A stretch of DNA of 18,662 nt from a virus (IMGVR_UViG_3300010259_000013:1-18662); one strand, 5' to 3'. Numbered from the stretch's first letter, positions 1,217 to 16,287 are shown. The notes: a model not told the origin generated them from the letters alone. Program-made: numbers and translations.

Positions 1217-1331
1217 CAGAAAACCCTCCGAGTGGTGTGTTTTTTGGCGACTACTAATCGCTTTTTTCGTGGTGGCTGAAATTTAGCCACCAATAGTAGG
1301 CACTTGTGATGAATATATTCACGATGAATTG

Positions 1332-1631
1332 TTAACCAGTCTTTTGACCGGAGTGGGGCGACGTTGTTTCGTTTTGCCCAAAGTGTGCGAGAGCGGGCGC
1401 AATTTGCCCGGACTCAGGAGCGATCTGATTGGTCATGAACCATAAAGTGTATTTGGTGAATTGTGGGGTCTGCAGGATGTTCATCATGACATCTGTTGGA
1501 GGTGTTGAACGACCACTTTCATAGTAACTCAGCGTGCCATACGGAACCCCTGTTAAATCAGCAAGTTGTTGTCTGCTCAAATACTCTGATTTTCGCATTA
1601 AGACTATCTTCTCGCTTATCGTGTTTGACAT
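1332..1631 (-). CDS. C: Immunity repressor C (P2 C-like), helix-turn-helix
   Basis: 99-aa ORF, same length as P2 C. HTH-like segment QQLADLTGVPYGTLSYYE. Divergent from cox across an operator-bearing intergenic region. Confidence 0.9.
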   Translation of the reverse strand: MSNTISEKIVLMRKSEYLSRQQLADLTGVPYGTLSYYESGRSTPPTDVMMNILQTPQFTKYTLWFMTNQIAPESGQIAPALAHFGQNETTSPHSGQKTG

Positions 1632-1664
1632 GGTGTTTAGATCTCAATAGTATTTAGTTTAGAT
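1625..1664 (+). promoter_or_regulatory. Candidate early promoter Pe (-35 TTGACA 1625-1630, -10 TAGTAT 1648-1653) with two direct-repeat operator half-sites GTTTAGAT (1635-1642, 1657-1664)
   Basis: Hexamers have a 17-bp spacer. The two identical 8-mers are 22 bp centre-to-centre and flank the -10, which fits the P2 C-operator arrangement. Further (G/A)TTTAG copies sit at 1652 and 1672. Confidence 0.6.
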
Positions 1665-1698
1665 GTAGATTGTTTAGTGCTTGGATGTGGGCACTAAA

Positions 1699-1722
1699 AG
1701 GCATTATAAGGCATTAAACGCA
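1699..1722 (-). promoter_or_regulatory. Candidate Pc -10 (TATAAT on minus strand, complement of 1703-1708) and Cox-box-like TTAAACGCA (1714-1722)
   Basis: Perfect -10 hexamer in the right orientation for leftward transcription of C. No convincing -35. TTAAACGCA fits the Cox-box consensus TTAAA(G/C)NCA as I recall it. Confidence 0.4.
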
Positions 1723-1745
1723 ATTCATGAGGGCTGGAGGACGAC

Positions 1746-2021
1746 ATGAGCAAGCAAGTAACACTCATGACTGATGCGATTCCTTATCAGGAGTTCGCAA
1801 AACTAATAGGAAAATCGACAGGAGCGGTTCGTCGGATGATCGATAAAGGAAAGCTGCCTGTAATTGATATGACCGATCCACAATCAGCTTCAGGTCGTGC
1901 AGGTGAATATTGGGTATACCTTCCGGCATGGAATAACGGACTAAAACTGGCTTATGAAAGCCGCCCTAAAGAGATTCGTGACGGCTGGTTGATGTGGTTA
2001 GGTCTCGGTGAACCACGTTAA
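1746..2021 (+). CDS. cox: Cox (excisionase and Pc repressor), P2 Cox-like
   Basis: 91-aa ORF, same length as P2 Cox. ATG at 1746 preceded by GGAGGA. First gene of the early rightward operon opposite C. Confidence 0.9.
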   Translation: MSKQVTLMTDAIPYQEFAKLIGKSTGAVRRMIDKGKLPVIDMTDPQSASGRAGEYWVYLPAWNNGLKLAYESRPKEIRDGWLMWLGLGEPR

Positions 2022-2031
2022 GGAGAACCGT

Positions 2032-2202
2032 ATGAATGAGCCTCGTTGTATTGCTCAGTTACTGCGTAACGAAAGCTCCAGGGCGATTGACTTCACCATC
2101 ACCCACGGTAAGGGGCGTAAGGGAATCATTATCCGCACCAAAAAACAGAGTCCGTTAAAGAAGGCTCTGACCTTTCTGAAAAGCCGGAGGGTATGGAAAT
2201 GA
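2032..2202 (+). CDS. Small basic early protein of unknown function (P2 orf78 position)
   Basis: The ORF-track start at 2008 is GTG. The first ATG is 2032, with AAGGAG six nt upstream. Synteny between cox and B. Confidence 0.6.
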   Translation: MNEPRCIAQLLRNESSRAIDFTITHGKGRKGIIIRTKKQSPLKKALTFLKSRRVWK

Positions 2203-2699
2203 CAGTGATGACGCTCAATCTCGTTGAAAAACAGCCAGCAACTATGCGCCGGATAATTGGTAAGCATCTGGCTGTCCCTCGCTGGCAGGAGACATGCGAT
2301 TATTATAATCAGATGATGGAACGCGAACGGCTAACGGTTTGCTTTCATGCGCAGTTAAAACAGCGTCACGCAACGATGCGTTTTGAAGAAATGAACGACG
2401 TCGAACGTGAACGACTGGTATGTGCAATTGATGAATTGCGCGGGGCATTCTCAAAACGCCGTCAGGTTGGCGCAAGTGAGTATGCATATATTAGTTTTTT
2501 AACAGTCAGTCAGCGTCGCACTTTATTTATGCACGCACGACTGACAGAAAAAGAATTTAACCAGCCATACTGGCGAATTAATGAAGAGTCATGTTACTGG
2601 CGTGATGCTTTATTCCGTGCATTACGTGAATTATTCAGCCTGTTTGAGTATGCACCGACAATTCTGACGTCGGTAAAACCAGAGCAATATCTGCATTAA
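2199..2699 (+). CDS. B: Replication protein B (P2 B-like)
   Basis: ORF 2193-2699. Starting at the third Met (2199) gives 166 aa, equal to P2 B, with GGAGG eight nt upstream. Synteny. Confidence 0.85.
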   Translation: MTVMTLNLVEKQPATMRRIIGKHLAVPRWQETCDYYNQMMERERLTVCFHAQLKQRHATMRFEEMNDVERERLVCAIDELRGAFSKRRQVGASEYAYISFLTVSQRRTLFMHARLTEKEFNQPYWRINEESCYWRDALFRALRELFSLFEYAPTILTSVKPEQYLH

Positions 2700-2720
2700 G
2701 TAATTAACCAGAGTTTTTAA

Positions 2721-2748
2721 CGCACTTAATTGTGCGGGGCTTTTTTTT
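2721..2748 (+). terminator. Candidate intrinsic terminator or attenuator after B (stem CGCAC-TTAATT-GTGCG, then GGGC and a T8 run)
   Basis: Short hairpin followed by eight consecutive T at 2741-2748. The stem is weak; it may allow partial read-through into the downstream early genes. Confidence 0.45.
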
Positions 2749-2762
2749 GCCTGGAGAAAGTC

Positions 2763-2987
2763 ATGCATACAGTTTCTGAAAATCAGTGCGGTAAATACGC
2801 ATTACTGCTGCAACAGGCCAGAACCGAAGCACAGGCCGACGCGGCGACGCGCTTTTCTTCTCATCTTGACGCCATGATTCGCCACATCACAAAGGCGGAG
2901 TTATCCCGCGTGGAGATAGTCGAGCTGCTCAGTCAGGAGTCGGAAAAATTTCACAATATCGGATTGTCTCGCGGGGAGGTACTTTGA
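2763..2987 (+). CDS. Hypothetical early protein (P2 orf80-83 family position)
   Basis: The ORF-track start at 2730 is TTG. The first ATG is 2763, with GGAG six nt upstream. Its stop overlaps the next start (ATGA-type coupling). Confidence 0.6.
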
Positions 2988-3289
2988 TGTCCTGTTCTCA
3001 TTCAGTTGTATTACTGAATAACGCCTTAAAAATCGCCGTTATGAAAAATGGCGATTTGTCTCTTATTCAACTTTGTCTTGATAAAGAAAAACGCGACATA
3101 ACTGAATCTGTTATCGCGATTTATCAGAATGAATTAAACCTCCTGTCTGATGTGGTCAATTTACTTGTTAAACGCGCTGTATTCCACAAGCAAATTTCCT
3201 CAGTGGATGAACTGACACAATTAACGACAGAAATCGCCAGCTATTGCGCTGATGAATTTAAGAAACTGAACGACAAAAGGAGCTGGTAA
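2987..3289 (+). CDS. Hypothetical early protein
   Basis: ATG at 2987 overlaps the upstream TGA; the stop overlaps the next ATG (TAATG). Synteny with the P2 early operon. Confidence 0.6.
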   Translation: MSCSHSVVLLNNALKIAVMKNGDLSLIQLCLDKEKRDITESVIAIYQNELNLLSDVVNLLVKRAVFHKQISSVDELTQLTTEIASYCADEFKKLNDKRSW

Positions 3290-3513
3290 TGCCGGACAAC
3301 GTGGATTTTATTCAGGAACAACAGGCTGAATTACTGGAGCGCCAGATTAACGCGGCAAGGGTAAAACATTATGGTGCTTCTGCGCTGGTTTGCGAAGAGT
3401 GTGATGCGCCAATACCTGCTGCCCGTCGTGCGGCTTATCCGTCAGCCACGAGTTGTGTTTCCTGTCAGTCAGTCTTTGAAGCAAAAAACAAACATTACCG
3501 GAGAACGGCATGA
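3289..3513 (+). CDS. TraR/DksA-family C4 zinc-finger protein
   Basis: 74 aa with CEEC ... CVSC (CxxC-x16-CxxC). AAAGGAG lies upstream. Translationally coupled to its neighbours. Confidence 0.7.
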   Translation: MPDNVDFIQEQQAELLERQINAARVKHYGASALVCEECDAPIPAARRAAYPSATSCVSCQSVFEAKNKHYRRTA

Positions 3514-3785
3514 GTATTCGTATTGAAATTGGCGAACGTTATGTCGTTACCAGTGACAGCTTTCAGTTTATTCTCCACGAGAAAAAGAGAGCGGAAAGCG
3601 GTAAAAACGCCGGTCAGGAATGGCTGGCGGTGGTTGGTTATTACCCGAAATTAAGTCAGCTCGTTTCCGGCCTGATGCATCACGATATTCTGACCGGAAG
3701 CGCAAAATCTTTTGCCGATTTAAACGCGCAGGTTGAGCAACTCAGCAGGCGTTGTTCAGAGGCTTTTGGCTCATATGGCCGTTAA
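3510..3785 (+). CDS. Hypothetical early protein immediately upstream of A
   Basis: 91-aa ORF. Start overlaps the upstream stop (ATGA); the 3' end overlaps the A start. Confidence 0.6.
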   Translation: MSIRIEIGERYVVTSDSFQFILHEKKRAESGKNAGQEWLAVVGYYPKLSQLVSGLMHHDILTGSAKSFADLNAQVEQLSRRCSEAFGSYGR

Positions 3786-6060
3786 AGCCTCCGGGCGTTT
3801 TGTCCCTCCGTCAGCATTTGCTGCAGGCACCGGTAAGGCGTTTACCGGTGCTTATGCATGGAACGCGCCACGCGAGGCTGTCGGGCGCGAAAGACCCCTT
3901 ACACGTGACGAGATGCGTCAGGTGCAAGGTGTTTTATCCACGATTAACCGCCTGCCTTACTTTTTGCGCTCGCTGTTTACGTCACGCTATGACTACATCC
4001 GGCGCAATAAAAGCCCGGTGCACGGGTTTTATTTCCTCACATCCACTTTTCAGCGTCGTTTATGGCCGCGCATTGAGCGTGTGAATCAGCGCCATGAAAT
4101 GAACACCGACGCGTCGATGCTGTTTCTGGCTGAGCGTGACCACTATGCGCGCCTGCCGGGGATGAATGACAAGGAGCTGAAAAAGTTTGCCGCCCGTATC
4201 TCATCGCAGCTTTTCATGATGTATGAGGAACTCTGCGATGCATGGGTTGATGCACATGGCGAGAAAGAATCGCTGTTTACGGATGAGGCGCAGGCGCATC
4301 TGTATGGTCATGTTGCTGGCGCTGCACGTGCTTTCAATATTTCCCCGCTCTACTGGAAAAAATACCGTAAAGGACAGATGACCACGAGGCAGGCATATTC
4401 TGCCATTGCCCGTCTGTTTAACGATGAGTGGTGGACTCATCAGCTTAAAGGCCAGCGTATGCGCTGGCATGAGGCGTTACTGATTGCTGTCGGGGAGGTC
4501 AATAAAGACCGTTCTCCTTATGCCAGTAAACATGCCATTCGTGATGTGCGTGCACGCCGCCAGGCAAATCTGGAATTTCTTAAATCGTGTGACCTCGAAA
4601 ACAGGGAAACCGGCGAGCGCATCGACCTTATCAGTAAGGTGATGGGCAGTATTTCTAATCCTGAAATTCGCCGGATGGAGCTGATGAACACCATCGCCGG
4701 TATTGAGCGTTACGCCGCCGCAGAGGGTGATGTGGGGATGTTTATCACGCTGACCGCGCCGTCAAAGTATCACCCGACACGTCAGGTCGGAAAAGGCGAA
4801 AGTAAAACCGTCCAGCTAAATCACGGCTGGAATGATGAGGCATTTAATCCAAAGGATGCGCAGCGTTATCTCTGCCGTATCTGGAGCCTGATGCGCACGG
4901 CATTCAAGGATAATGATTTACAGGTCTACGGTTTGCGAGTCGTCGAGCCACACCACGACGGAACGCCGCACTGGCATATGATGCTTTTTTGTAATCCACG
5001 CCAGCGTAACCAGATTATCGAAATCATGCGTCGCTATGCGCTCAAAGAGGATGGTGACGAAAGAGGAGCCGCGCGAAACCGTTTTCAGGCAAAACACCTT
5101 AACCGGGGCGGTGCTGCGGGATATATCGCGAAATACATCTCAAAAAACATCGATGGCTATGCACTGGATGGTCAGCTCGATAACGATACCGGCAGGCCGC
5201 TGAAAGACACCGCAGCGGCTGTTACCGCATGGGCGTCAACGTGGCGCATCCCGCAATTTAAAACGGTTGGCCTGCCGACAATGGGGGCTTACCGTGAACT
5301 ACGCAAATTGCCTCGCGGCGTCAGCATTGCTGATGAGTTTGACGAGCGCGTCGAGGCTGCACGCGCCGCCGCAGACAGTGGTGATTTTGCGTTGTATATC
5401 AGCGCGCAGGGCGGGGCAAATGTCCCGCGCGATTGTCAGACTGTCAGGGTCGCCCGTAGCCCGTCGGATGAAGTTAACGAGTACGAGGAAGAAGTCGAGA
5501 GAGTGGTCGGCATTTACGCGCCGCATCTCGGCGCGCGTCATATTCATATCACCAGAACGACGGACTGGCGCATTGTGCCGAAAGTTCCGGTCGTTGAGCC
5601 TTTGACTTTAAAAAGCGGCATCGCCGCGCCTCGGAGTCCTGTCAATAACTGTGGAAAACTCACCGGTGGTGATACTTCGTTACCGGCTCCCACACCTTCA
5701 GAGCACGCCGCAGCAGTGCTTAATCTGGTTGATGACGGTGTTATCGAATGGAATGACCAGGAGGTCGTGAAGGCGCTAAGGGGCGCATTAAAACACGGAC
5801 TGAGAACACCAAATCGTCAGCAAAGAGCCGGAAGCCCGTTAAAACCGCATGAAATAGCGCCATCGGCCAGAATGACCCGGTCGGAACGAATGCAAATTAC
5901 CCGTATCCGCGTTGACCTTGCTCAGAACGGTATCAGGCCGCAGCGATGGGTGCTTGAGGCGCTGGCGCGTGGCGCGACCGTAAATTATGACGGGAAAAAA
6001 TTCACGTATCCGGTCGCTGATGAGTGGCCGGGATTCTCAACAGTAATGGAGTGGAAATGA
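3775..6060 (+). CDS. A: Replication initiation protein A, rolling-circle HUH endonuclease (P2 A-like)
   Basis: ORF 3733-6060. Starting at ATG 3775 (MAVKASGRF...) gives 761 aa, matching P2 A. HUH-type motif PHWHMMLF and paired tyrosines YIAKYISK. In P2 the ori lies inside this gene; I could not place it from sequence. Confidence 0.92.
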   Translation: MAVKASGRFVPPSAFAAGTGKAFTGAYAWNAPREAVGRERPLTRDEMRQVQGVLSTINRLPYFLRSLFTSRYDYIRRNKSPVHGFYFLTSTFQRRLWPRIERVNQRHEMNTDASMLFLAERDHYARLPGMNDKELKKFAARISSQLFMMYEELCDAWVDAHGEKESLFTDEAQAHLYGHVAGAARAFNISPLYWKKYRKGQMTTRQAYSAIARLFNDEWWTHQLKGQRMRWHEALLIAVGEVNKDRSPYASKHAIRDVRARRQANLEFLKSCDLENRETGERIDLISKVMGSISNPEIRRMELMNTIAGIERYAAAEGDVGMFITLTAPSKYHPTRQVGKGESKTVQLNHGWNDEAFNPKDAQRYLCRIWSLMRTAFKDNDLQVYGLRVVEPHHDGTPHWHMMLFCNPRQRNQIIEIMRRYALKEDGDERGAARNRFQAKHLNRGGAAGYIAKYISKNIDGYALDGQLDNDTGRPLKDTAAAVTAWASTWRIPQFKTVGLPTMGAYRELRKLPRGVSIADEFDERVEAARAAADSGDFALYISAQGGANVPRDCQTVRVARSPSDEVNEYEEEVERVVGIYAPHLGARHIHITRTTDWRIVPKVPVVEPLTLKSGIAAPRSPVNNCGKLTGGDTSLPAPTPSEHAAAVLNLVDDGVIEWNDQEVVKALRGALKHGLRTPNRQQRAGSPLKPHEIAPSARMTRSERMQITRIRVDLAQNGIRPQRWVLEALARGATVNYDGKKFTYPVADEWPGFSTVMEWK

Positions 6061-6512
6061 TGGCAAAAATTCACGAGGTAAAGCTGCACGCAAAATATTT
6101 TGACCTTGTGCTGGAAGGAAAGAAACGCGCAGAGTTTCGGAAAAATGACCGTAATTATGAGCGCGGGGACACGTTGATTTTGCATGAATGGGTGCAGGGT
6201 GTGTTTACGGGGCGAAAGGTTGAAGCCCGGATAACAGATGTTACTGACCTGTCAGACTGGCTGGAAGATTATGTCTTGCTAAGTATTGAGCTGCTTAATA
6301 CGGGCGCATATAAGATTGTGAACTGGAAAGAACTTAGTGAGCGTGGCCTGGTATTCAGAATTAATCATGAAATTATGCATCAGCTCGGCCTTGCTGTTAT
6401 GTATGAACCAGAGACGGGGATGTCTGGCGGGGCAATGGTTGCCACGGATGGAGTATGGATCTATTCAGATGAACAGATGGAGCGTGCACAGCAAAACGGG
6501 TGGCTCGGATAA
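6057..6512 (+). CDS. DUF3850/ASCH-like protein
   Basis: Tandem ATGs at 6057 and 6060 overlap the A stop. The N-terminal segment IHEVKLHAKYFDLVLEGKKRAEFRKNDRNYERGDTL resembles the DUF3850 signature. Confidence 0.65.
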   Translation: MMAKIHEVKLHAKYFDLVLEGKKRAEFRKNDRNYERGDTLILHEWVQGVFTGRKVEARITDVTDLSDWLEDYVLLSIELLNTGAYKIVNWKELSERGLVFRINHEIMHQLGLAVMYEPETGMSGGAMVATDGVWIYSDEQMERAQQNGWLG

Positions 6513-6566
6513 TGCACAGAATACCAGGCGAGATACCGCACCATAAAAACTAAAAATATCAAGCTG

Positions 6567-6725
6567 ATGGCCATTGTTCACCGTCTACAGCAGATTATGG
6601 TCAACGAAAATCTGACGCCCGATGAACTAGTCGGGTGTGCCGAAATAGTCCGGGATAATTACGGGCGACTTAACTATATCGGTATCGGTCAGTCCAGAGT
6701 TGCGCCACCACCACGCAGACGATAG
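6567..6725 (+). CDS. Possible small ORF (52 aa), weak
   Basis: ATG at 6567 to TAG at 6723-6725; the stop sits five bp before palindromic element copy 1. No clear Shine-Dalgarno. Below the ORF-track size cutoff. Confidence 0.2.
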   Translation: MAIVHRLQQIMVNENLTPDELVGCAEIVRDNYGRLNYIGIGQSRVAPPPRRR

Positions 6726-6729
6726 AGAA

Positions 6730-6796
6730 CGCCGCCAGTCGTGAAACTTGTTTTCAGGGCTGGCGGCGTTGAACAACGAGCGAAGCGAGGCGTTAG
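6730..6796. repeat. Palindromic element copy 1: ~17-bp imperfect hairpin (CGCCGCCAG...CTGGCGGCG) plus conserved 28-bp tail ending GAGGCGTTAG
   Basis: Seen in sequence. Stem 6730-6768 with inner arm TGAAAC/GTTTTCA. About 80% identical to copy 2 over ~67 bp. Confidence 0.8.
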
Positions 6797-6954
6797 TTGA
6801 CAGTCATATTTTTACTGCGTTGGTGCTGGTTTTTGACGGTTGAAAGGAGTTAGCCCGGAGAGCAAAAGCCAACAACTTACAAATATTCAAAAGTAAGCTT
6901 CCTGTTGCTAACATAAGGTCGATTTTTTATGTGGATGATGCAAAAAGGATAGCT

Positions 6955-7686
6955 ATGGATATTGTAATCGCTTTTCTATCACTCGCTTTTTTCGTTGCTT
7001 TTTTCATCGGGTTAATCAAGCCATCACTGGTGCGGATGCCAAACCGTAAACGTGCAAGTGCGGTTTATCTCGGAGGTAGTTTTGCATTGAGCATAATTGG
7101 TTCAATACTCTACCCAACAGAAAAAAGCCAGCCAGTTGCTAAAACTGAAACAGCAACCGTAGCAGAACACCAGGCTCAAAAAACATTCGAATATACTGAA
7201 AAAACACTCAAGGAATATCGGAACGAGCCAAAGAAGACTCGACACGATATTGTGAATAGTTACATTAACTTTAAGAAAGTGCCAGTCACCGCATCAGATG
7301 CATTTTATGCCTGCATGAGTGAGTATACATTTACCAAAGATGATGAGTTGAAACTCGGTGATGTTCTTGGGTGGTGCTTTAATGATTATGAAAATGACCC
7401 GAATTCATTAAACAATAAAATCAATCTTGATACATTTCAGAGTAATTTTAGTGGTTGGGATGGTTCTTATCGGCCATTGGAAAAATTAATTAAAGATAAT
7501 ATGAACGATGATTCATCTTATAAACATGTGTCAACGGTATATCATTTGGTTTTGAATAAAGACCCGCACGCCATTGTGAAAACCACGTTTCGCGGCACTA
7601 ATGCTTATGGTGGAGTGGTAAAGCAGACCGTAGCGGCGCGCGTCAACGTGCGAACGGGGGAGGTCGATTCGATACTCGACAATTAA
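6955..7686 (+). CDS. Membrane-anchored cargo protein 1 (two predicted N-terminal TM helices, ~180-aa soluble C-terminal domain), unknown function
   Basis: The ORF-track start at 6931 is GTG. The first ATG is 6955, with AAAGGA five nt upstream. Hydrophobic stretches IVIAFLSLAFFVAFFIGLI and AVYLGGSFALSIIGSILY. AT-rich codon usage unlike the backbone. Confidence 0.7.
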   Translation: MDIVIAFLSLAFFVAFFIGLIKPSLVRMPNRKRASAVYLGGSFALSIIGSILYPTEKSQPVAKTETATVAEHQAQKTFEYTEKTLKEYRNEPKKTRHDIVNSYINFKKVPVTASDAFYACMSEYTFTKDDELKLGDVLGWCFNDYENDPNSLNNKINLDTFQSNFSGWDGSYRPLEKLIKDNMNDDSSYKHVSTVYHLVLNKDPHAIVKTTFRGTNAYGGVVKQTVAARVNVRTGEVDSILDN

Positions 7687-7702
7687 ACAATATAGTGACA
7701 TA

Positions 7703-7769
7703 CCCCGCCAGTACTGAAACTTGTTTTCAGTGCTGGCGGGGTTAAACAAAGAGCATCGTGAGGCGTTAG
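7703..7769. repeat. Palindromic element copy 2: near-perfect 39-bp palindrome (CCCCGCCAGTACTGAAAC-ttg-GTTTTCAGTGCTGGCGGGG) plus conserved tail ending GAGGCGTTAG
   Basis: Seen in sequence. 17-bp stem with one G-T wobble. Sits 16 bp after the stop of cargo protein 1 and 25 bp before the start of cargo protein 2. Confidence 0.8.
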
Positions 7770-7794
7770 ATTAAAATCATTTGAGGCAGATAAA

Positions 7795-8457
7795 ATGCTT
7801 TGGAAAATAATTTCTTTTTTATTAGTTGGTATTTGTATGTTTGCTTTCGGTTTATGGTTAGGCTCTATTCAGGCTGAATGGGCGAAACCAGAGCATAAAG
7901 ATGCTGTTGCTTATTTAGCAATGATCGGAGGATGGGTCTCAGGAATTGCAACGTCAGTCGCAGTAATTATTTCATTGTATGCGACATACCAAGCATCACA
8001 GAATAATGTTGAAAAATTAAGTTTAACCTATAAGCCTTACTCTAGCGTAGACAAAGAAAATTATTGTGCCAATATTGAGGTTGTAAATTTGCGGAGCGTT
8101 CCGGTACATATACAAGAGTTTTGCTTAGAATTTAGTGGGATAAATAATCATTTCAACATAAACGAACTAAAAGCAAATGGGAAGGAGATCCCGTATTCTT
8201 TATACCAAGTAGGAGAGAAATGGGAGTTTGCCTTCTATCCTTTTGCAAAGCCGGGAAATATGAGGTTCTATAAAAGCTTAAGTGAGAATGGTAATCCAAG
8301 TTTTCGTAGTGGTTTCTTTGTGGTTAAAACATCAATGAAACAATACAAATTAAGGATGCCTAATGAGCTTTTGGAAATTATGAAAATTAGCTATGAAAAG
8401 CAAATGGAAATACGGAAGAATTATAAGGAAATGCATGGTAAAGAGATGGGCTTTTAA
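7795..8457 (+). CDS. Membrane-anchored cargo protein 2 (two predicted N-terminal TM helices, ~150-aa soluble C-terminal domain), unknown function
   Basis: ATG at 7795 with GAGG eight nt upstream. Hydrophobic stretches IISFLLVGICMFAFGLWLG and AVAYLAMIGGWVSGIATSVAVIISLYA. AT-rich. Confidence 0.7.
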   Translation: MLWKIISFLLVGICMFAFGLWLGSIQAEWAKPEHKDAVAYLAMIGGWVSGIATSVAVIISLYATYQASQNNVEKLSLTYKPYSSVDKENYCANIEVVNLRSVPVHIQEFCLEFSGINNHFNINELKANGKEIPYSLYQVGEKWEFAFYPFAKPGNMRFYKSLSENGNPSFRSGFFVVKTSMKQYKLRMPNELLEIMKISYEKQMEIRKNYKEMHGKEMGF

Positions 8458-8580
8458 AACGCATTAACAAGCATCAAATTGCATGCGCATCCCTCCCCTG
8501 TTGTGTTTGAGCGCTGCCAGTGATGGTGTGCCTCTGGCGTGTTCGTGCAACTGCATTAAAACCGCCCCATGAAGCGGGCG

Positions 8581-8599
8581 GGCGAGGCGGGGAAAGCAT
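8581..8599. other. cos cohesive-end site (P2/186 type)
   Basis: GGCGAGGCGGGGAAAGCAT matches the 19-nt P2/186 cohesive end as I recall it (the P2 last base may be C). It sits in a GC-rich, backbone-like block upstream of the Q/P packaging genes. Confidence 0.7.
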
Positions 8600-8676
8600 T
8601 GCGCTGGACCTAGAGGCTTTGCTATCTTATTTGATGTTATTGGTATTTATTCAATTGAATGACCGTAGAGGATGAA

Positions 8677-9273
8677 ATGTGTCACATTGAAATTTTTCGG
8701 GAAGCACTAACAGTAAAGGATCCTATATATATATACAGGAAGTATCTTTTAGGGCATGACGTGTGGTATTTTAGAAATAAATTGGGAAAATTAAATTATG
8801 CAGAGGTTTATGATGATCTTAAGATACTTATGTCAGAAAGATTAGGTGTTCACATTAATAATGTTGCTATTGTTGGAAGTGCGAAGTTAGGATTTAGCAT
8901 AACACCCACAGAAGATAAAGCCTTTAGAGAGTTTAACGAAGATAGTGATATTGATATTGTTGTCGTATCCCCTGAGCTTTTTAGAAAGTCTTGGGATGCA
9001 TATCTTGATGTGGCAAAAAGACAAAGAATACCTTATTACTATAAAATCACAAGCAATATATTTAGAAAGTTTGTATCCTTAAAGAATATTGATTATAATA
9101 ATGAATTCTTTCGAGATTGGAAAAACAAAATAGAACCTTGTCAAAAAGATTTGCAGGTTATATATGAAGTACCGAACGAGATTAACTATAGAATATATGA
9201 GTCTTGGGAGGATGTGGAACGCTATCATGTTCAAGGCTTAGAAAAACTTAAAAACTTAATGGGGCAAATTTAA
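8677..9273 (+). CDS. Putative minimal nucleotidyltransferase (Pol-beta-superfamily-like) cargo protein
   Basis: ORF 8659-9273. The better start is ATG 8677 (AGAGGA upstream), giving 198 aa. Candidate NTase motif hhGS...DxD: VAIVGSAKLG (8875-8892) and DSDIDIVVV (8941-8958), with a longer-than-usual insert between. AT-rich. Stop is one nt before the next ATG. Confidence 0.55.
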   Translation: MCHIEIFREALTVKDPIYIYRKYLLGHDVWYFRNKLGKLNYAEVYDDLKILMSERLGVHINNVAIVGSAKLGFSITPTEDKAFREFNEDSDIDIVVVSPELFRKSWDAYLDVAKRQRIPYYYKITSNIFRKFVSLKNIDYNNEFFRDWKNKIEPCQKDLQVIYEVPNEINYRIYESWEDVERYHVQGLEKLKNLMGQI

Positions 9274-9274
9274 A

Positions 9275-10336
9275 ATGAGTATTGTGAGAAACGTTAAAGT
9301 TGAAAGCAGAGATATAAAGTGGGTATCTGATAATTTTAAGTCAGGCGAGTTGGTTATTGATAATTCATTTCAAAGGCGATATGTTTGGGTTAAAAAAGAT
9401 AAAGTATCGTTAATTGAATCAATACTCCTCGGTTATCCTATTCCTGAAGTTTATCTGTGGCAAAATAAGACCGATCCTGAAACAGGGCAGAGAATTCATT
9501 CTATTGTTGATGGGCAGCAACGATTAGGTGCGGTTTTTGATTTTGTAACAGATAAGTTTGCATTAGAAAAACGTTATCTAGAATATAAGGATTCTGATTT
9601 TTCTGGAAAAAAATTTTCTGAATTAGATACAGAACAAAAAGCTGTTATCTGGGGATATGATTTTTCAATTCGATTTATTAATAATGATATAACTATTGAT
9701 GACATTAAAAATTTATTTCTTCGTCTTAATAGAACTAATATAACTCTTAACCCTCAAGAGTTAAGGAATGCGGAATTTAATGGTGAGTTTATTAAATTGG
9801 CGAGCTCTTTGTCGGAACATCAATTTTGGACAGAGTTCAAGGTGTTCAACTCATCTGACTTGAGACGAATGCTTGATATCCAGTTTATTAGTACTATGTT
9901 AATATTTATTAGAATGGGTATTGCTGAAGAAACATCCCAGGCGGCTATTAACAAAGTTTATGATCAATATAATGAAACGTATCCAGAGGCTGAACAAGAT
10001 AAAGAGTTGTTCATGGATTTGCTAAATCTGCTTGCTAATATGATAAGGGGTAAGCAATCTCTTGAATATATTGCAAAAAGAAAAACACACCTCTATACAT
10101 TATTTACATTGTCTTTTTACTTATTTAAAACTGGTATTGATTCTGATAGTGGGTACCAAAATGTAGCTGTAAAATTGGATGAGTGGTTTAATAATTATAT
10201 AAATGAGGTGGATTTTGATGATGAGATGGTTAACGTTTTATTAAATGAATATCGTACGCTTTCCCAAGAAGGCGTGCAGAAAAAGCAAAATAGGCAACGG
10301 AGACTGGATATTTTGAAGGGTTATATAACCATGTAA
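9275..10336 (+). CDS. DUF262 / ParB-like (GmrS-like NTPase fold) protein lacking a recognisable DUF1524/HNH nuclease domain
   Basis: 353 aa. N-terminal FQRRYVW and the hallmark DGQQR motif (9508-9522) of the DUF262 family. No His-Me/HNH motif seen in the C-terminal ~150 aa. Translationally coupled to the upstream NTase-like gene. Confidence 0.75.
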   Translation: MSIVRNVKVESRDIKWVSDNFKSGELVIDNSFQRRYVWVKKDKVSLIESILLGYPIPEVYLWQNKTDPETGQRIHSIVDGQQRLGAVFDFVTDKFALEKRYLEYKDSDFSGKKFSELDTEQKAVIWGYDFSIRFINNDITIDDIKNLFLRLNRTNITLNPQELRNAEFNGEFIKLASSLSEHQFWTEFKVFNSSDLRRMLDIQFISTMLIFIRMGIAEETSQAAINKVYDQYNETYPEAEQDKELFMDLLNLLANMIRGKQSLEYIAKRKTHLYTLFTLSFYLFKTGIDSDSGYQNVAVKLDEWFNNYINEVDFDDEMVNVLLNEYRTLSQEGVQKKQNRQRRLDILKGYITM

Positions 10337-10340
10337 TTAT

Positions 10341-10367
10341 CCCCCCCCCCTAGTATTTAGGAGGGGG
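10341..10367. repeat. C10 homopolymer (10341-10350) facing a GGAGGGGG run (10360-10367); potential C/G stem-loop just 3' of the DUF262 gene
   Basis: Seen in sequence, four bp after the DUF262 stop. Could form a GC stem with an A/T-rich loop. No T-tract follows. Confidence 0.5.
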
Positions 10368-10445
10368 CATGGCTTATTGGCTAAAGTTTTTCAGGTTTAT
10401 TTATTGAACTTGAGAATATACTTATAATTAAACAAGAGGATTATG

Positions 10446-10469
10446 AATAAAAAGCCGCCCGCAGGCGGC
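10446..10469 (-). terminator. Intrinsic terminator for the leftward Q-P late operon
   Basis: On the minus strand: stem GCCGCC-tgcg-GGCGGC (plus 10454-10469) followed by TTTTTATT (plus 10446-10453), five bp after the Q stop. Confidence 0.7.
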
Positions 10470-10474
10470 GATGT

Positions 10475-11509
10475 TCAGCCGTTGTCAGTGTCCAGTGAGT
10501 AGTTTTTAAATCGGATGACCTCCTGACCGAGCCAGCCGTTTATCTCGCGGATCCTGTCCTGTAACGGGATAAGCTCATTGCGGACAAAGACCTTTGCCAC
10601 TTTCTCAATATCACCCAGCGACCCGACGTTCTCCGGCTTGCCACCCATCAACTGAAAGGGGATGCGGTGTGCGTCCAGCAGGTCAGCGGCGCTGGCTTTT
10701 TTGATATTAAAAAAATCGTCCTTCGTTGCCACTTCACTGAGGGGGATAATTTTAATGCCGTCGGCTTTCCCCTGCGGGGCATAGAGAAACAGATTTTTAA
10801 AGTTATTGCGGCCTTTCGACTTAACCATGTTTTCGCGGAGCATTTCGATATCGTTGCGATCCTGCACGGCATCAGTGACGTACATGATATATCCGGCATG
10901 CGCGCCGTTTTCGTAATACTTGCGGCGGAACAGCGTGGCTGATTCATTCAGCCAGGCAGAGTTAAGGGCGCTGAGATATTCCGGCAGACCGTACAGCTCC
11001 TGATTAATATCCGGCTCCAGCAGGTGAAACACGGAGCCGGGCGCGAAAGGTGTCGGCTCGTTGAAGGACGGCACCCACCAGTAAACATCCTCCTCCACGC
11101 CACGGCGGGTATATTTTGCCGGTGAGGTTTCCAGTCTGATGACCTTACCGGTGGTGCTGTAACGCTTTTCCAGAAACGCATTACCGAATACCAGAAAATC
11201 CAGCACAAAGCGGCTGAAATCCTGCTGAGAAAGCCACGGGTGTGGGATAAACGTTGAGGCCAGAATATTACGTTTGACGTAAATCGGTGAGCTGTGATGC
11301 ACGGCAGCACGCAGGCTTTTTGCCAGACCGGTAAAGCTGACCGGTGGCTCATACCATCTGCCGTTACTGATGCACTCGACGTAATCCAGAATGTCACGGC
11401 GGTCGAGTACCGGCACCGGCTCACCAAAGGTGAATGCCTCCATTTTCGGGGCGCTGGCGGTCATTTTTTTTGCCGCAGGTTGCGGTGTTTTCCCTTTTTT
11501 CTTGCTCAT
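10475..11509 (-). CDS. Q: Portal protein (P2 Q-like)
   Basis: 344-aa ORF, same length as P2 Q. Its ATG overlaps the P stop (ATGA). Synteny Q-P divergent from O-N-M-L. Confidence 0.92.
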   Translation of the reverse strand: MSKKKGKTPQPAAKKMTASAPKMEAFTFGEPVPVLDRRDILDYVECISNGRWYEPPVSFTGLAKSLRAAVHHSSPIYVKRNILASTFIPHPWLSQQDFSRFVLDFLVFGNAFLEKRYSTTGKVIRLETSPAKYTRRGVEEDVYWWVPSFNEPTPFAPGSVFHLLEPDINQELYGLPEYLSALNSAWLNESATLFRRKYYENGAHAGYIMYVTDAVQDRNDIEMLRENMVKSKGRNNFKNLFLYAPQGKADGIKIIPLSEVATKDDFFNIKKASAADLLDAHRIPFQLMGGKPENVGSLGDIEKVAKVFVRNELIPLQDRIREINGWLGQEVIRFKNYSLDTDNG

Positions 11510-13281
11510 CAGTAAAACTCCAGAATGGTGGATGTCAGCGGGGTGCTGATACCGGCGGTGAGTGGCTCATTTAACAGGGCGTGCATGGTCGCCCAGGCGA
11601 GGTCGGCGTGGCTGGCTTCCTCGCTACGGCTGGCCTCATAGGTGGCGCTGCGTCCGCTGCTGGTCATGGTCTTGCGGATAGCCATAAACGAGCTGGTGAT
11701 GTCGGTGGCGCTGACGTCATATTCCAGACAGCCACGGCGGATGACGTCTTTTGCCTTGAGCACCATTGCGGTTTTCATTTCCGGCGTGTAGCGGATATCG
11801 CGCGCGGCGGGATAGAACGAGCGCACGAGCTGGAACACGCCGACACCGAGGCCGGTGGCATCAATTCCGATGTATTCGACGTTGTATTTTTCGGTGAGTT
11901 TGCGGATGGATTCCGCCTGAGTGGCAAAGTCCATGCCTTTCCACTGGTGACGCTCAAGTATTCTGAATTTACCTCCGGCCACCACCGGCGGTGCCAGCAC
12001 CACGCATCCGGCGCTGTCGCCACGGTGTGACGGGTCGTAACCAATCCATACCGGGCGGGAGCCGAACGGATTGGCGGCAAACGGCGCATAGTCTTCCCAT
12101 TCTTCCAGCGTGTCGACCATGCAGCGTTGCAGCTCCTCGAACGGGAACACCGACGCCTTGTCGTCAACAAATTCACACATGAACAGGTTTTTAAAATCGT
12201 CGGCGCTGTTTTCACGTTTGAGCTGCTCAATGTCGAACAGCGTGCAGCCACCTTTCAGGGCGTCCTCAATGGTGACAATCTGCCGCCACTGGCCGTCCGC
12301 ACAGAGAAGCCCCCCGGCAAGGGCGTTATGACTGACGTCGATTTCCACGCGTTCGGCGGCGCTGGCGCGTCCCCGGTTGAACAGTTCACCCGACCAGAAT
12401 GGGTAGGCGTCGTGCGCCAGCGTGGACGGGGTGGAGAAATAGGTCGAGCGCAGGTGGCTCTGTGAGGCCATACCTGATGCCACCTTACGCAGTACCTGAA
12501 AATTCGGGATCCAGAAAATCTCGTCGACGTACAGGTCGCCGTTATGGCTCTGTGCGGTGTTGGAGTTGGTGCCGAGAAAAATCAGTTTTGCGCCGTTATT
12601 GCCCAGGACAATCGGGTCACCGGTCAGGTCAACGTCAACCAGCCGGGCAAAGGCGATGATGTATTCGCGGAACACATACGCCTGCGTTTTACTGGCCGAC
12701 AGAAAAATCTGGTTATGACCGGTTTTCAGGGCGCGCAGCAGCGCCTCGCGGGAAAAATAAAACGTCGCGCCAATCTGGCGGGATTTCAGGATATCGCGGA
12801 TGCGGTGCTCAAGCCCGGCGCGATACCAGTGCAACTGATAGTCGAAAGACTGCTCAAAGAAAATCTGCTCCAGCTTTTCGATGGCCTCGTCACTGAAAAA
12901 ATTCTTTTTCGGTTTGCGCCGCCCGCCTTTGTTGCGGTTAGCGACGTTCGGATTAAGGTCTGCCTCGTTGCCGGTCTGGCTGTAGCGGTTGACCCGTGCC
13001 AGTCGTTCAATCTGGCGTCCCAGCAGGTCAATTTCCTTGAAGTCACTGCCGGTTTTCTGCGGTTTGATGATGAGCTGGGTCAGCCGCGCTTCCAGGCTCA
13101 TTTCCACACGGCTGATGGGGGCAACACTGTCCCAGCCGTCGCGCTGTTTCCAGCTCTGCACCGTCGGGCGTTTCATCTGCAACATGGCGGCAATCTGCGG
13201 CACGGAAAACCCCTGCCAGTACAGCAGCGCCGCCTGACGACGCGGGTCGTGTAAAAGAGTGGTGTCTGTGGTGATGGTCAT
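11509..13281 (-). CDS. P: Terminase large (ATPase) subunit (P2 P-like)
   Basis: The ORF-track start at 13311 is TTG. The first ATG is 13281 (MTITTDTTLL...), giving 590 aa, matching P2 P. Confidence 0.92.
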   Translation of the reverse strand: MTITTDTTLLHDPRRQAALLYWQGFSVPQIAAMLQMKRPTVQSWKQRDGWDSVAPISRVEMSLEARLTQLIIKPQKTGSDFKEIDLLGRQIERLARVNRYSQTGNEADLNPNVANRNKGGRRKPKKNFFSDEAIEKLEQIFFEQSFDYQLHWYRAGLEHRIRDILKSRQIGATFYFSREALLRALKTGHNQIFLSASKTQAYVFREYIIAFARLVDVDLTGDPIVLGNNGAKLIFLGTNSNTAQSHNGDLYVDEIFWIPNFQVLRKVASGMASQSHLRSTYFSTPSTLAHDAYPFWSGELFNRGRASAAERVEIDVSHNALAGGLLCADGQWRQIVTIEDALKGGCTLFDIEQLKRENSADDFKNLFMCEFVDDKASVFPFEELQRCMVDTLEEWEDYAPFAANPFGSRPVWIGYDPSHRGDSAGCVVLAPPVVAGGKFRILERHQWKGMDFATQAESIRKLTEKYNVEYIGIDATGLGVGVFQLVRSFYPAARDIRYTPEMKTAMVLKAKDVIRRGCLEYDVSATDITSSFMAIRKTMTSSGRSATYEASRSEEASHADLAWATMHALLNEPLTAGISTPLTSTILEFY

Positions 13282-13454
13282 GAATACCTCGCCGTGATGA
13301 ATACACGGCAAGGCTACTGAGTCGCGCCCCGCGATTCGCTAAGGTGCTGTTGTGTCAGTGATAAGCCATCCGGGACTGATGGCGGAGGATGCGCATCGTC
13401 GGGAAACTGATGCCGACATGTGACTCCTCTAATCACTATTCAGGACTCCTGACA
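13282..13454. promoter_or_regulatory. Divergent late-promoter region (PP leftward, PO rightward), presumably Ogr-activated
   Basis: 173-bp intergenic region between divergent P and O. One partial Ogr-like TGT-N12-CCA element at 13351-13368. Hexamers could not be assigned confidently. Confidence 0.45.
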
Positions 13455-14309
13455 ATGGCAAAAAAAGTCTCAAAATTCTTTCGTATCGGCGTTGAGGGTG
13501 ACACCTGTGACGGGCGTGTCATCAGTGCGCAGGATATTCAGGAAATGGCCGAAACCTTTGACCCGCGAGTCTATGGTTGCCGCATTAACCTGGAACATCT
13601 ACGCGGCATTTTGCCTGACGGTATTTTTAAGCGTTATGGCGATGTGGCCGAACTGAAGGCCGAAAAGATTGACGATGATTCGGCGCTGAAAGGCAAATGG
13701 GCGCTGTTTGCGAAAATCACCCCGACCGATGACCTTATCGCGATGAACAAGGCCGCGCAGAAGGTCTACACCTCAATGGAAATTCAGCCGAACTTTGCCA
13801 ATACCGGCAAATGTTATCTGGTGGGGCTGGCCGTCACCGATGACCCGGCAAGCCTCGGCACGGAATACCTGGAATTCTGCCGCACGGCAAAACACAACCC
13901 CCTGAACCGCTTCAAATTAAGCCCTGAAAACCTGATTTCAGTGGCAACGCCTGTTGAGCTGGAATTTGAAGACCTGCCTGAAACCGTGTTCACCGCCCTG
14001 ACCGAAAAGGTGAAATCCATTTTTGGCCGCAAACAGGCCAGCGATGACGCCCGTCTGAATGATGTGCATGAAGCGGTGACCGCTGTTGCTGAACATGTGC
14101 AGGAAAAACTGAGCGCCACTGAGCAGCGCCTCGCTGAGATGGAAACCGCCTTTTCCGCACTTAAGCAGGATGTGACTGACAGGGCGGATGAAACCAGCCA
14201 GGCATTCACCCGCCTGAAAAACAGTCTTGACCACACCGAAAGTCTGACCCAGCAGCGCCGCAGCAAGGCCACCGGTGGTGGCGGTGACGCCCTGATGACG
14301 AACTGCTGA
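13455..14309 (+). CDS. O: Capsid scaffolding protein (P2 O-like)
   Basis: ORF 13389-14309. ATG at 13455 (MAKKVSKFF...) gives 284 aa, matching P2 O. Confidence 0.9.
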   Translation: MAKKVSKFFRIGVEGDTCDGRVISAQDIQEMAETFDPRVYGCRINLEHLRGILPDGIFKRYGDVAELKAEKIDDDSALKGKWALFAKITPTDDLIAMNKAAQKVYTSMEIQPNFANTGKCYLVGLAVTDDPASLGTEYLEFCRTAKHNPLNRFKLSPENLISVATPVELEFEDLPETVFTALTEKVKSIFGRKQASDDARLNDVHEAVTAVAEHVQEKLSATEQRLAEMETAFSALKQDVTDRADETSQAFTRLKNSLDHTESLTQQRRSKATGGGGDALMTNC

Positions 14310-14367
14310 CCGGCGTCAGTCAGTCCGGGAAAACCTTCACGATTAACCCTTAATTTCAGGAAAAACT

Positions 14368-15441
14368 ATGCGCCAGGAAACCCGCTTTAAATTTAATGCC
14401 TACCTGTCCCGTGTTGCCGAACTGAACGGCATCGACGCCGGTGATGTGTCGAAAAAATTCACCGTTGAACCGTCGGTCACCCAGACCCTGATGAACACCA
14501 TGCAGGAGTCCTCTGACTTTCTGACCCGCATCAACATTGTGCCGGTCAGCGAAATGAAAGGGGAAAAAATTGGCATCGGTGTCACCGGCTCCATTGCCAG
14601 CACCACCGACACCGCCGGTGGCACCGAGCGTCAGCCGAAGGACTTCTCGAAGCTGGCGTCAAACAAGTACGAATGCGACCAGATTAACTTCGATTTTTAT
14701 ATCCGCTACAAAACGCTTGACCTGTGGGCGCGTTATCAGGATTTCCAGCTCCGTGTCCGTAACGCCATTATCAAACGCCAGTCCCTTGATTTCATCATGG
14801 CCGGTTTTAACGGCGTGAAGCGTGCCGAAACCTCTGACCGCAGCAGCAATCCGATGCTGCAGGATGTGGCGGTCGGCTGGCTGCAGAAATACCGCAATGA
14901 AGCCCCGGCGCGCGTGATGAGTAAGGTCACTGACGAGGAAGGCCGCACCACCTCTGAGGTTATCCGCGTGGGTAAGGGCGGTGATTATGCCAGCCTTGAT
15001 GCACTGGTGATGGATGCGACCAACAACCTGATTGAGCCGTGGTATCAGGAAGACCCTGACCTTGTGGTGATTGTGGGGCGTCAGTTACTGGCGGACAAGT
15101 ATTTCCCCATCGTTAACAAGGAGCAGGACAACAGCGAAATGCTGGCCGCTGACGTCATCATCAGCCAGAAACGCATCGGTAACCTGCCGGCGGTACGCGT
15201 CCCGTACTTCCCGGCGGATGCGATGCTCATCACGAAGCTGGAAAACCTGTCCATCTACTACATGGATGACAGCCATCGCCGAGTGATTGTGGAAAACCCG
15301 AAACTCGACCGCGTGGAGAACTACGAGTCAATGAACATTGATTACGTGGTGGAAGACTACGCCGCCGGTTGTCTGGTGGAAAAAATTAAGGTCGGTGATT
15401 TCTCCACACCGGCTAAAGCGACCGCAGAGCCGGGAGCGTAA
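14368..15441 (+). CDS. N: Major capsid protein (P2 N-like)
   Basis: 357-aa ORF, same length as P2 N. Synteny O-N-M-L. Confidence 0.92.
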   Translation: MRQETRFKFNAYLSRVAELNGIDAGDVSKKFTVEPSVTQTLMNTMQESSDFLTRINIVPVSEMKGEKIGIGVTGSIASTTDTAGGTERQPKDFSKLASNKYECDQINFDFYIRYKTLDLWARYQDFQLRVRNAIIKRQSLDFIMAGFNGVKRAETSDRSSNPMLQDVAVGWLQKYRNEAPARVMSKVTDEEGRTTSEVIRVGKGGDYASLDALVMDATNNLIEPWYQEDPDLVVIVGRQLLADKYFPIVNKEQDNSEMLAADVIISQKRIGNLPAVRVPYFPADAMLITKLENLSIYYMDDSHRRVIVENPKLDRVENYESMNIDYVVEDYAAGCLVEKIKVGDFSTPAKATAEPGA

Positions 15442-15444
15442 CCG

Positions 15445-16188
15445 ATGACGAGTCCCGCACAGCGCCACATGATGCGGGTCTCGGCAGCGATAACCGCGCA
15501 GCGGGAAGCCGCCCCGCTGCGACATGCAACTGTCTATGAGCAGATGCTGGTTAAGCTCGCCGCAGACCAGCGCACACTGAAAGCGATTTATTCAAAAGAG
15601 CTGAAGGCCGCGAAAAAACGCGAACTGCTGCCGTTCTGGTTGCCGTGGGTGAACGGCGTGCTGGAGCAGGGCAAAGGTGCACAGGATGACATTCTGATGA
15701 CGGTCATGCTGTGGCGTCTGGATACCGGCGATATTGCCGGTGCGCTGGAGATTGCCCGTTATGCCCTGAAGTACGGTCTGACCATGCCGGGTAAACACTG
15801 CCGCACCCCGCCGTACATGTTCACCGAGGAAGTGGCGCTTGCGGCCATGCGCGCTCACGCTGCCGGTGAGTCTGTGGATCCCCGCCTGCTGATGGACACC
15901 CTCGAACTGACCGCCACGGCTGACATGCCTGATGAAGTGCGCGCAAAGCTGCACAAAATCACCGGTCTGTTTCTGCGTGACGCTGGTAATGCCGCAGGGG
16001 CGCTGGCACACCTGCAACGTGCGACACAGCTCGACTGTCAGGCAGGCGTCAAAAAAGAGATTGAACGACTGGAGCGGGAGCTGAAACCGAAGCCGGAGCC
16101 GCAGCCCAAAGCGGCCACCCGCGCCCCGCGTAAGACCCGGAGCGTGACACCGGCAAAACGTGGACGCCCGAAAAAGAAAGCCAGTTAA
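15445..16188 (+). CDS. M: Terminase small/endonuclease subunit (P2 M-like)
   Basis: 247-aa ORF, same length as P2 M. Synteny. Confidence 0.9.
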   Translation: MTSPAQRHMMRVSAAITAQREAAPLRHATVYEQMLVKLAADQRTLKAIYSKELKAAKKRELLPFWLPWVNGVLEQGKGAQDDILMTVMLWRLDTGDIAGALEIARYALKYGLTMPGKHCRTPPYMFTEEVALAAMRAHAAGESVDPRLLMDTLELTATADMPDEVRAKLHKITGLFLRDAGNAAGALAHLQRATQLDCQAGVKKEIERLERELKPKPEPQPKAATRAPRKTRSVTPAKRGRPKKKAS

Positions 16189-16287
16189 CAACCGAATGCG
16201 CCCCGCGCCAGGGCGGCACGCCGGTCAGTGAGGGTGAATCACCTGACACTGCACCGGCGTCCACCGCCCGACTTTTCAGAGGTAGTC

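Follow-up and report, generated by a model that had tools for sequence, protein, structure and literature searches.

A cos-flanking accessory-gene hotspot with two separately assembled sides and a predicted DUF262 defence cassette in a P2-like Escherichia coli prophage

The gpA-gpQ locus of the prophage

The DNA analyzed here, IMGVR_UViG_3300010259_000013 (18,662 nucleotides (nt); this whole stretch is hereafter called the window), is a P2-like (Peduovirus) prophage of Escherichia coli adjoining yegR, as identified by Pfam matches and gene order. Its genes follow the P2-like order of integrase, C-type repressor, Cox and gpA, and then portal, terminase, scaffold and capsid. Four cargo genes rich in adenine and thymine (AT-rich), designated g1 to g4, lie between the backbone genes gpA and Q, two on each side of the cohesive-end site, cos. 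Our results indicated that this prophage carries, at the gpA-gpQ cos hotspot, two sides that were assembled separately, and that the pair on the portal side, g3-g4, is a replacement cassette with a predicted role in defence; we assign this reading a probability of roughly 80%.

The left edge of the hotspot is the gene of the gpA replication endonuclease (3775-6060, plus strand; Pfam Phage_GPA, expectation value (E) 3e-124; start coordinate as called in identical loci), and the right edge is the gpQ portal gene (10475-11509, minus strand; Pfam Phage_portal), both belonging to the backbone. The backbone starts again at the hairpin of the tQ terminator (10454-10469, minus strand), which was found by a terminator scan and is annotated at the equivalent place in P2. 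P2 gene order was found on both flanks, and cos lies between them. Positions 6060-10450 are the cos-proximal accessory-gene hotspot of P2-like phages, which has already been described: 1,650 arrangements were counted among 18,150 loci (Rousset et al., 2022, PMC9122126), four newly found defence systems were located at this position (Vassallo et al., 2022, PMC9519451), the locus has been named “moron position 1” in a study that also discussed the AT-rich morons of P2-like phages (Wiles et al., 2013, PMC3573123), and a survey of P2 and P4 defence repertoires treats it as well (Moura de Sousa, 2026, PMC13586616). The genes tin and old, the cargo of P2 at the same locus, have a guanine-cytosine (GC) content of 0.33-0.35. 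The exact cargo proteins of the window have been recorded in about 100 E. coli contigs, and the arrangement is therefore no assembly artefact. A search of positions 5900-10700 against Rfam, with E up to 0.1, gave no match.

Base composition and boundaries of the island

GC content was profiled by 200-nt sliding windows, segment counts and maximum-likelihood segmentation. It was 0.485 at positions 1-6800, 0.381 at 6801-8460, 0.533 at 8461-8640, 0.321 at 8641-10450 and 0.569 at 10451-18662. Between about 6870 and 10453, GC content drops to 0.36, from 0.52-0.57 outside. Changepoints were placed at 6870 (log-likelihood ratio (LLR) 80.5) and 10453 (LLR 151.1), far above the best single changepoint obtained in 200 shuffles (mean 2.8, maximum 9.9). 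The left module has a GC content of 0.377 against 0.524 for the left backbone (Fisher p = 5.5e-22), and the right module 0.322 against 0.569 for the right backbone (Fisher p = 1.7e-82); in 100-nt windows, the mean was 0.350 for the island and 0.531 for the backbone (Mann-Whitney U test, p = 1.2e-16). GC content at third codon positions was 0.27-0.37 in the four cargo genes, well below the 0.55-0.72 of gpA, Q, P and the capsid genes. The AT-rich island with sharp compositional steps, which an initial annotation of this DNA had noticed by eye, was thus borne out by the computed profile and also at the codon level. That annotation had further placed the transitions within tens of base pairs (bp) of the conserved genes. 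This holds on the right, where the step at 10453 is 22 bp away from the Q stop codon and falls on a homology boundary at about 10448, but not on the left. There, a semi-variable block that includes a DUF3850 gene and has an intermediate GC content comes first, and the step at 6870 is reached about 810 bp past the gpA stop.

The locus was compared with 80 IMG/VR loci whose portals are at least 99% identical to that of the window, and a per-base conservation profile was computed against 84 related loci. Homology to gpA extends to about position 6036 in about 70 of the 84, and gpA and Q are common to about 70-82 loci. Between 13 and 18 of the 84 have the DUF3850/ASCH gene and the sequence as far as about 6800, while g1 is common to four, g2 to one and the right module (8605-10447) to none at the DNA level; backbone homology starts again near 10448, where the tQ hairpin closely precedes the Q stop codon. 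The view of the four genes as accessory cargo was upheld by these counts, whereas the proposed start of the island at 6800 was not, as the comparison with relatives put the start of the variable region, and of the hotspot proper, at the gpA stop (about 6036-6060).

The cos block and the two sides of the hotspot

The two pairs of cargo genes are divided by a GC-rich block at 8461-8604 (144 bp, GC 0.58). The P2 cohesive-end 19-mer, GGCGAGGCGGGGAAAGCAT, occurs once, at 8581-8599, with one mismatch to P2, and lies within a 62-bp core (8543-8604) that is common to 81 of the 84 loci and is also found in P2, 186 and the satellite P4. The block differs in GC content from the remaining island (0.576 versus 0.348, Fisher p = 6e-8), and the earlier interpretation of it as backbone cos splitting the island was confirmed.

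At cos, P4 and P2 have in common the 19-mer, YGCGCGC and, towards gpA, no more than about 45 bp; past YGCGCGC, the P4 hotspot (gop, beta, cII) begins. P4 is packaged by the P2 terminase. The spacer between cos and tQ would thus not be needed for terminase recognition, and it appears to be replaceable for this reason, P4 being without it. Only about 62 bp around the cohesive-end sequence would have to be kept, which would leave room for cargo on both sides and let the core survive as a GC-rich island of backbone between AT-rich cassettes.

The DUF3850 gene, g1 and g2 are also present, at 96-98% nucleotide identity, in the prophage of E. coli SCAID URN1-2021 (L001), whose cos-to-Q interval consists solely of the canonical 171-bp spacer. 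When the window and L001 were compared base by base, homology stopped 5-8 bp past the 19-mer (window 8604-8607) and started again at 10451. Thus, the right module (8605-10447, plus strand; 1.84 kb, GC 0.32), whose junctions were mapped against L001, is no simple insertion; it stands in place of about 135 bp of the cos-to-tQ backbone spacer. As L001 has g1 and g2 without the right module, and relatives of the right module occur elsewhere without g1 and g2, the two sides of cos were shown to have been assembled separately. Of the original proposal of two independently acquired modules, the independence therefore stands, but the left “module” is itself composite and the right one is a replacement. 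The right side would stem from replacement recombination, joined 5-8 bp past the cos 19-mer on the left and at the tQ terminator on the right, and this event would have brought in a tightly coupled two-gene operon encoding a Pol-beta-type nucleotidyltransferase-like protein and an NsnA-like ParB-DUF262 protein. Searches of 5,426 complete E. coli genomes with megablast and of 50,697 phage records with blastn gave no DNA match to the right module.

In 79 loci with portals at least 99% identical to that of the window, the interval from gpA to cos is always filled (1264-5670 bp, median 2964; GC 0.32-0.41 in 72 loci). The interval from cos to Q measures 82-176 bp in 78 of these 79 loci with window-type portals, and portal-side cargo is accordingly rare in the window lineage (1/79). 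That such cargo is rare in general was also considered, and this was overturned by 152 loci with more divergent portals, the rarity being restricted to the window lineage. In two other P2/186 portal clades, the cos-to-Q interval reaches at least 300 bp (69/72 Serratia-type and 15/70 L179-type loci), and 58 cos-to-Q inserts of at least 1 kb in the loci with more divergent portals have a mean GC content of 0.373, as against 0.553 for Q. Both flanks of cos are cargo slots across the P2/186 family, with a preference that is lineage-specific. A Serratia 186-like prophage (L181) carries a three-gene cluster, mSLOG/DUF4326-DUF488-DuOB, on the gpA side of cos (5153-6871, minus strand) and g3-g4 on the portal side, so the two slots can hold different putative defence cargo.

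The sole close relative with other portal-side cargo is L052 (stored coordinates 11032-12493), in which a single 333-residue protein with a hydrophobic C-terminal region is encoded. This insert begins about 8 bp past the cos 19-mer, is unrelated to the cargo of the window and has kept most of the backbone spacer; its cos-side junction is almost that of the window, and its distal junction is different.

The g3-g4 cassette

The two genes of the right module are separated by a single nucleotide. The first, g3 (8677-9273, plus strand), encodes a nucleotidyltransferase-like protein of 198 amino acids, and the second, g4 (9275-10336, plus strand), encodes an NsnA-like protein of 353 amino acids that lacks a nuclease domain: a ParB/DUF262 NTPase domain at its N-terminus is followed by a C-terminal domain made up of helices only. 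A homolog of g3 stands directly upstream of a homolog of g4 in 56 of 85 loci, which belong to Proteobacteria, Bacteroidota, Bacillota and others.

When g3 was compared with the Pol-beta superfamily/minimal nucleotidyltransferase (MNT) pattern G-[GS] ... D-x-[DE], candidate motifs for both parts were noted (G67-S68 and D91-x-D93), with Pfam and fold matches below threshold; a sequence search of the PDB with g3 found nothing meaningful. For g4, Pfam gave GmrSD_N (3.5e-22), and PADLOC gave NsnA (E 2.8e-40, residues 7-343) and PD-T4-2_A (6e-18). Its motifs are QR at 33-34, an invariant DGQQR at 79-83 and FxxxN at 148-152. In an AlphaFold2 model, the C-terminal half consists of helices throughout, giving a ParB-DUF262 plus helical layout. 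Residues 191-353 had no Pfam match even at E up to 10 and contain one invariant His only. A HEPN domain in g4 was considered and rejected, as the C-terminal half has neither an Rx4-6H motif nor a Pfam match, and a sequence search of the PDB with g4 returned BrxU alone, weakly.

The cassette has a GC content of 0.32-0.34 in every enterobacterial element, though the copies differ by 27-35% in nucleotide sequence, and it is more AT-rich than its surroundings in nine of nine distant hosts checked. Low GC content is thus a persistent property of the g3-g4 cargo and no clock for recent arrival: AT-richness does not date the acquisition, because the composition is kept across copies so far diverged. 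Such persistence would fit with AT-rich immunity genes being xenogeneically silenced by H-NS.

Further details were noted within the right module. A palindrome close to a LexA box, CTATATATATATACAG (8723-8738; one mismatch to CTGT-N8-ACAG), lies 46 nt inside g3, such matches being no commoner than chance in the window. In the tail of the module (10337-10447), a C10 ... G5 hairpin (ATCCCCCCCCCCTAGTATTTAGGAGGGGG) stands directly 3' of the g4 stop codon and is followed by 80 bp of very AT-rich DNA without a homolog among the fetched loci. In several draft assemblies, g3 or g4 appears as a partial protein on contigs shorter than 1 kb.

Occurrence of g3-g4 relatives

The nearest non-identical protein relatives of g4 have 77% amino acid identity. 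P4-like satellites of Klebsiella and Edwardsiella carry the pair in the order primase ... sid-delta-psu, cos, cos, g3, g4, int. In L179, a metagenomic 186-like prophage, the order is gpA, cos, g3, g4, portal, likewise with a 77% identical copy, and the same layout was found in a Serratia 186-like prophage at 65% identity. Decayed Cronobacter satellites and two lambdoid prophages are further contexts of the pair. In all clear P2-like, 186-like and P4-like cases, the cos 19-mer starts 96-258 bp upstream of the start of g3, and this placement of the cassette after cos suggests, at the level of sequence comparison, cos-anchored movement.

In the satellites L093 (6830, 7149), L097 (6830, 7148) and also L094-L096, the stretch from psu to g3 holds a pair of directly oriented cos 19-mers spaced about 319 bp apart. 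The first copy is immediately followed by sequence resembling the P2 cos-tQ spacer (..CCTGAGCGCGTCG..), and the spacer from the second, distal copy to the cassette is also conserved in Cronobacter L177/L178. An uncertain exception is L100 (6341-11065, Enterobacter sp. ECC-219), in which g3-g4 (51% amino acid identity) lies just past a truncated P2-like terminase gene and the nearest cos-like 19-mer, 466 bp upstream of g3, has four mismatches and is at chance level; L100 may be a rearranged prophage/satellite junction.

Genes and repeats on the left side

The first cassette past gpA is semi-variable and consists of a P2 orf91-like gene (6057-6512, plus strand; Pfam DUF3850 1e-17, DUF7415 2e-14; GC 0.47) with DUF3850/ASCH and DUF7415 domains; P2 orf91, at the equivalent position, is annotated as DUF3850. 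In L001, the DUF3850 gene is followed by an annotated open reading frame (ORF) of 68 codons. Its counterpart in the window (about 6512-6725) is out of frame owing to one extra nucleotide inserted into an A-run near 6546, and a 51-codon remnant of it, starting at about 6568, is still potentially translatable.

The next gene, g1 (6955-7686, plus strand; GC 0.40), encodes a 243-residue protein of the Orf97 family (phrog_3403, E 5e-145) with two N-terminal hydrophobic helices. It is 80% identical to phage 186 Orf97 over 243 of 243 residues (E 2e-155) and occupies the same genomic position. According to the annotation of the 186 Orf97 record, plasmid expression blocks 186 infection. It is followed by g2 (7795-8457, plus strand; GC 0.35), which encodes a 220-residue protein (phrog_16957, E 6.5e-70), also with two N-terminal hydrophobic helices, and which was present in four of the 5,426 complete E. 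coli genomes. Neither g1 nor g2 had a match in Pfam, PADLOC or NCBIfam. Control of g1 by LexA, as at 186 p95, was considered and rejected: the window holds eight CTGT-N8-ACAG matches against 5.1 expected, none of them upstream of g1. By analogy with the annotation of 186 Orf97, and from their membrane topology, g1 and g2 may act as superinfection-exclusion-type prophage functions.

A 79-nt direct repeat flanks g1 on both sides, each copy with a hairpin of 18-19 bp. Copy 1 (6729-6807; direct repeat D1 and inverted repeat I1; hairpin 6728-6770) has a folding energy of -38.8 kcal/mol (z -5.1), and the left GC step comes after it; copy 2 (7702-7780; -36 kcal/mol, z -5.2) matches copy 1 at 81% identity. 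Where the stems of the copies differ, the changes are complementary (GCCGCC..GGCGGC versus CCCGCC..GGCGGG). A single copy of the element is found in each of about 30 other P2/186-like hotspots, typically some 700 bp past the end of gpA, and in phage 186 the element follows closely on orf97 (L008, about 4379). It has no T-run and is therefore no canonical intrinsic terminator, and its identification with the 186 terminators t95a/t95b was rejected, as there is no homology. The element may be a cassette recombination site or an RNA element, and the repeats fit an insertion of the orf97 cassette by recombination at it.

The left side is thus a composite of at least two to three cassettes. It would have grown by cassette swapping, with an orf91-like gene, an Orf97-family membrane protein between the 79-nt copies, and a second membrane protein.

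Interpretation of the locus

The compositional island is textbook for P2-like prophages, and the new part is the uncharacterized nucleotidyltransferase-like/DUF262 cassette with its suggestive link to cos. We propose that the DUF262 protein g4 would sense or bind foreign DNA in a manner dependent on nucleoside triphosphates (NTP), and that it would work with or control the nucleotidyltransferase g3 as effector, by which a cellular or phage target would be nucleotidylylated and the infection halted. As a result, the lysogen, and hence the prophage, would be protected from competing phages.

A bolder proposal is that g3-g4 represents a new, widespread two-gene anti-phage system which, in enterobacteria, is a cos-linked cassette travelling between P2/186-like helpers and P4-like satellites, the packaging site serving as a portable recombination anchor. 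We regard this as tentative and, taken as a whole, rather doubtful. If true, it would be an exception to the reported near-absence of defence exchange between helpers and satellites, and it would offer a mechanism for the position of both hotspots, which abut cos.

Several points weigh against these interpretations. The linkage to cos is not obligatory, since the g3-g4 pair is also found in lambdoid prophages and in 76 loci without cos. The window cassette is 73% identical to the satellite copies at the nucleotide level, and the cos-to-g3 spacers of phages and satellites are not homologous; neither a recent transfer between phage and satellite nor its direction would appear to be supported by such values. 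The exchange of defence genes between P2 and P4 was found to be almost nil (Moura de Sousa, 2026, PMC13586616). In addition, the assignment of g3 as a putative nucleotidyltransferase rests on motifs together with sub-threshold Pfam and fold matches, a Foldseek comparison of g3 with the PDB gave no significant match, and g3, like g1 and g2, is without any PADLOC match.

Among the alternatives, the one that survives best is that g3-g4 is not an anti-phage system and is instead a toxin-antitoxin or addiction module, or has a phage-beneficial function, for instance in counter-defence or in modifying the DNA or RNA of the phage itself, and happens to be housed in the hotspot. We consider this possible and still improbable, as g4 can be aligned along its entire length with NsnA, the sensor of Menshen, and also with PD-T4-2_A, two components of validated defence systems, as defence genes are strongly enriched at the locus (PMC9122126, PMC9519451), and as g4 has no HEPN motif.

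Somewhat less probable, in our view, is that the right module came straight from a co-resident P4-like satellite, by a crossover in the roughly 60 bp of shared cos homology and an illegitimate join at tQ. The nearest non-identical relatives of both g4 and g3 do lie between cos and int in the Klebsiella and Edwardsiella satellites, the P4 hotspot begins at the same point past cos (YGCGCGC) and in the same orientation, and of the two cos copies of the satellites the second is joined to the cassette by the spacer that the decayed Cronobacter satellites have also conserved. However, an equally close copy lies between cos and Q in the 186-like L179 and a 65% copy in the Serratia 186-like prophage, and exchange among P2/186-like phages through homology at cos and the Q flank is therefore at least as likely as a satellite donor. 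The moderate nucleotide identity and the unrelated spacers given above also speak against a satellite donor, as does the published survey, in which only one close P2-P4 pair was found (Moura de Sousa, 2026, PMC13586616). That low GC content reflects local functional or mutational constraint on ancestral backbone genes, and not acquired cargo, is highly improbable: the stable composition of the cassette at 27-35% divergence and the wide occurrence of Orf97-family genes in 186-like phages could be cited for it, but it is contradicted by the presence/absence polymorphism among prophages with portals at least 99% identical, by the empty cos-to-Q site of L001, by the absence of the right module from the 5,426 complete E. 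coli genomes and by the presence of the same cassette in unrelated elements.

Under the favoured reading of a separately assembled hotspot with a predicted defence cassette on its portal side, the window lineage and L001 form a clean natural pair, essentially one cassette apart, which is suited to asking what the cassette does to a lysogen. With relatives across several phyla, the cassette is a candidate for a defence system and may help to show how nuclease-less DUF262 sensors signal. In addition, its recurrent place after cos in helpers and satellites, together with the duplicated cos of the satellites, provides a testable model of how hotspot cargo moves, a question left by the 2026 survey of P2 and P4 (PMC13586616).

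Comparison with known systems

Judged by sequence, the g3-g4 pair is an uncatalogued DUF262 arrangement with respect to PADLOC 2.0 and the papers on related systems considered here, because the parts required for Menshen (NsnB, NsnC), for GmrSD, BrxU and SspE (DUF1524) and for PD-T4-2 (HEPN) are missing from it. DUF262-containing entries do occur in the supplementary tables of Rousset et al. (2022, PMC9122126). The cassette has a likeness to Menshen (NsnABC): g4 resembles NsnA over nearly its full length, with a ParB-DUF262 domain, a helical C-terminal domain and no DUF1524. Menshen, however, requires NsnB and NsnC besides NsnA (PMC12065111), and the cassette has neither an NsnB ABC ATPase with DUF3696 nor an NsnC effector, the only conserved partner of g4 being the upstream nucleotidyltransferase-like protein of about 200 amino acids. 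No further ORF lies between g4 and Q that could encode an NsnB-type ATPase, none was found in the gene tables of the relatives examined, and an NsnC effector gene is absent downstream of g4.

With the GmrSD family, g4 shares a DUF262 domain with the DGQQR NTP-binding motif; it differs from GmrSD, BrxU and SspE in that its C-terminal half is all-helical and carries no DUF1524 His-Me finger nuclease. PD-T4-2 combines DUF262 with HEPN (PMC10952713). The cassette resembles this system and HEPN-MNT pairs in that g4 matches the DUF262 component and the minimal-nucleotidyltransferase-like g3 is comparable to MNT, but neither protein has a HEPN family match or an Rx4-6H motif, and g3 does not match PD-T4-2_B. 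WonAB of Vibrio cholerae was considered and rejected, as it consists of an ABC ATPase and a PD-(D/E)xK nuclease.

On the left side, the likeness of g1 to Orf97 of phage 186 extends to its place, downstream of gpA and before cos. In 186, however, orf97 follows tum within the LexA-controlled p95 operon, whereas the window has no tum/DinI gene and no convincing LexA box upstream of g1.

The hotspot at cos-int of P4-like satellites (Rousset et al., 2022) offers a further parallel, as in both cases the cargo starts a few bases past the shared cos core (YGCGC) and is oriented away from cos, and the closest relatives of g3-g4 in the Klebsiella and Edwardsiella satellites occupy exactly that slot. The window element differs in being a helper phage, with the terminator of the portal gene, and not an integrase, at the distal flank. 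With the P2 hotspot it shares the slot between A and Q, the proximity to cos, the AT-rich cargo and a gene content that is highly variable among near-identical prophages; but whereas P2 and 78 of 79 close relatives sampled carry cargo solely on the gpA side of cos, the window carries it on the portal side as well.

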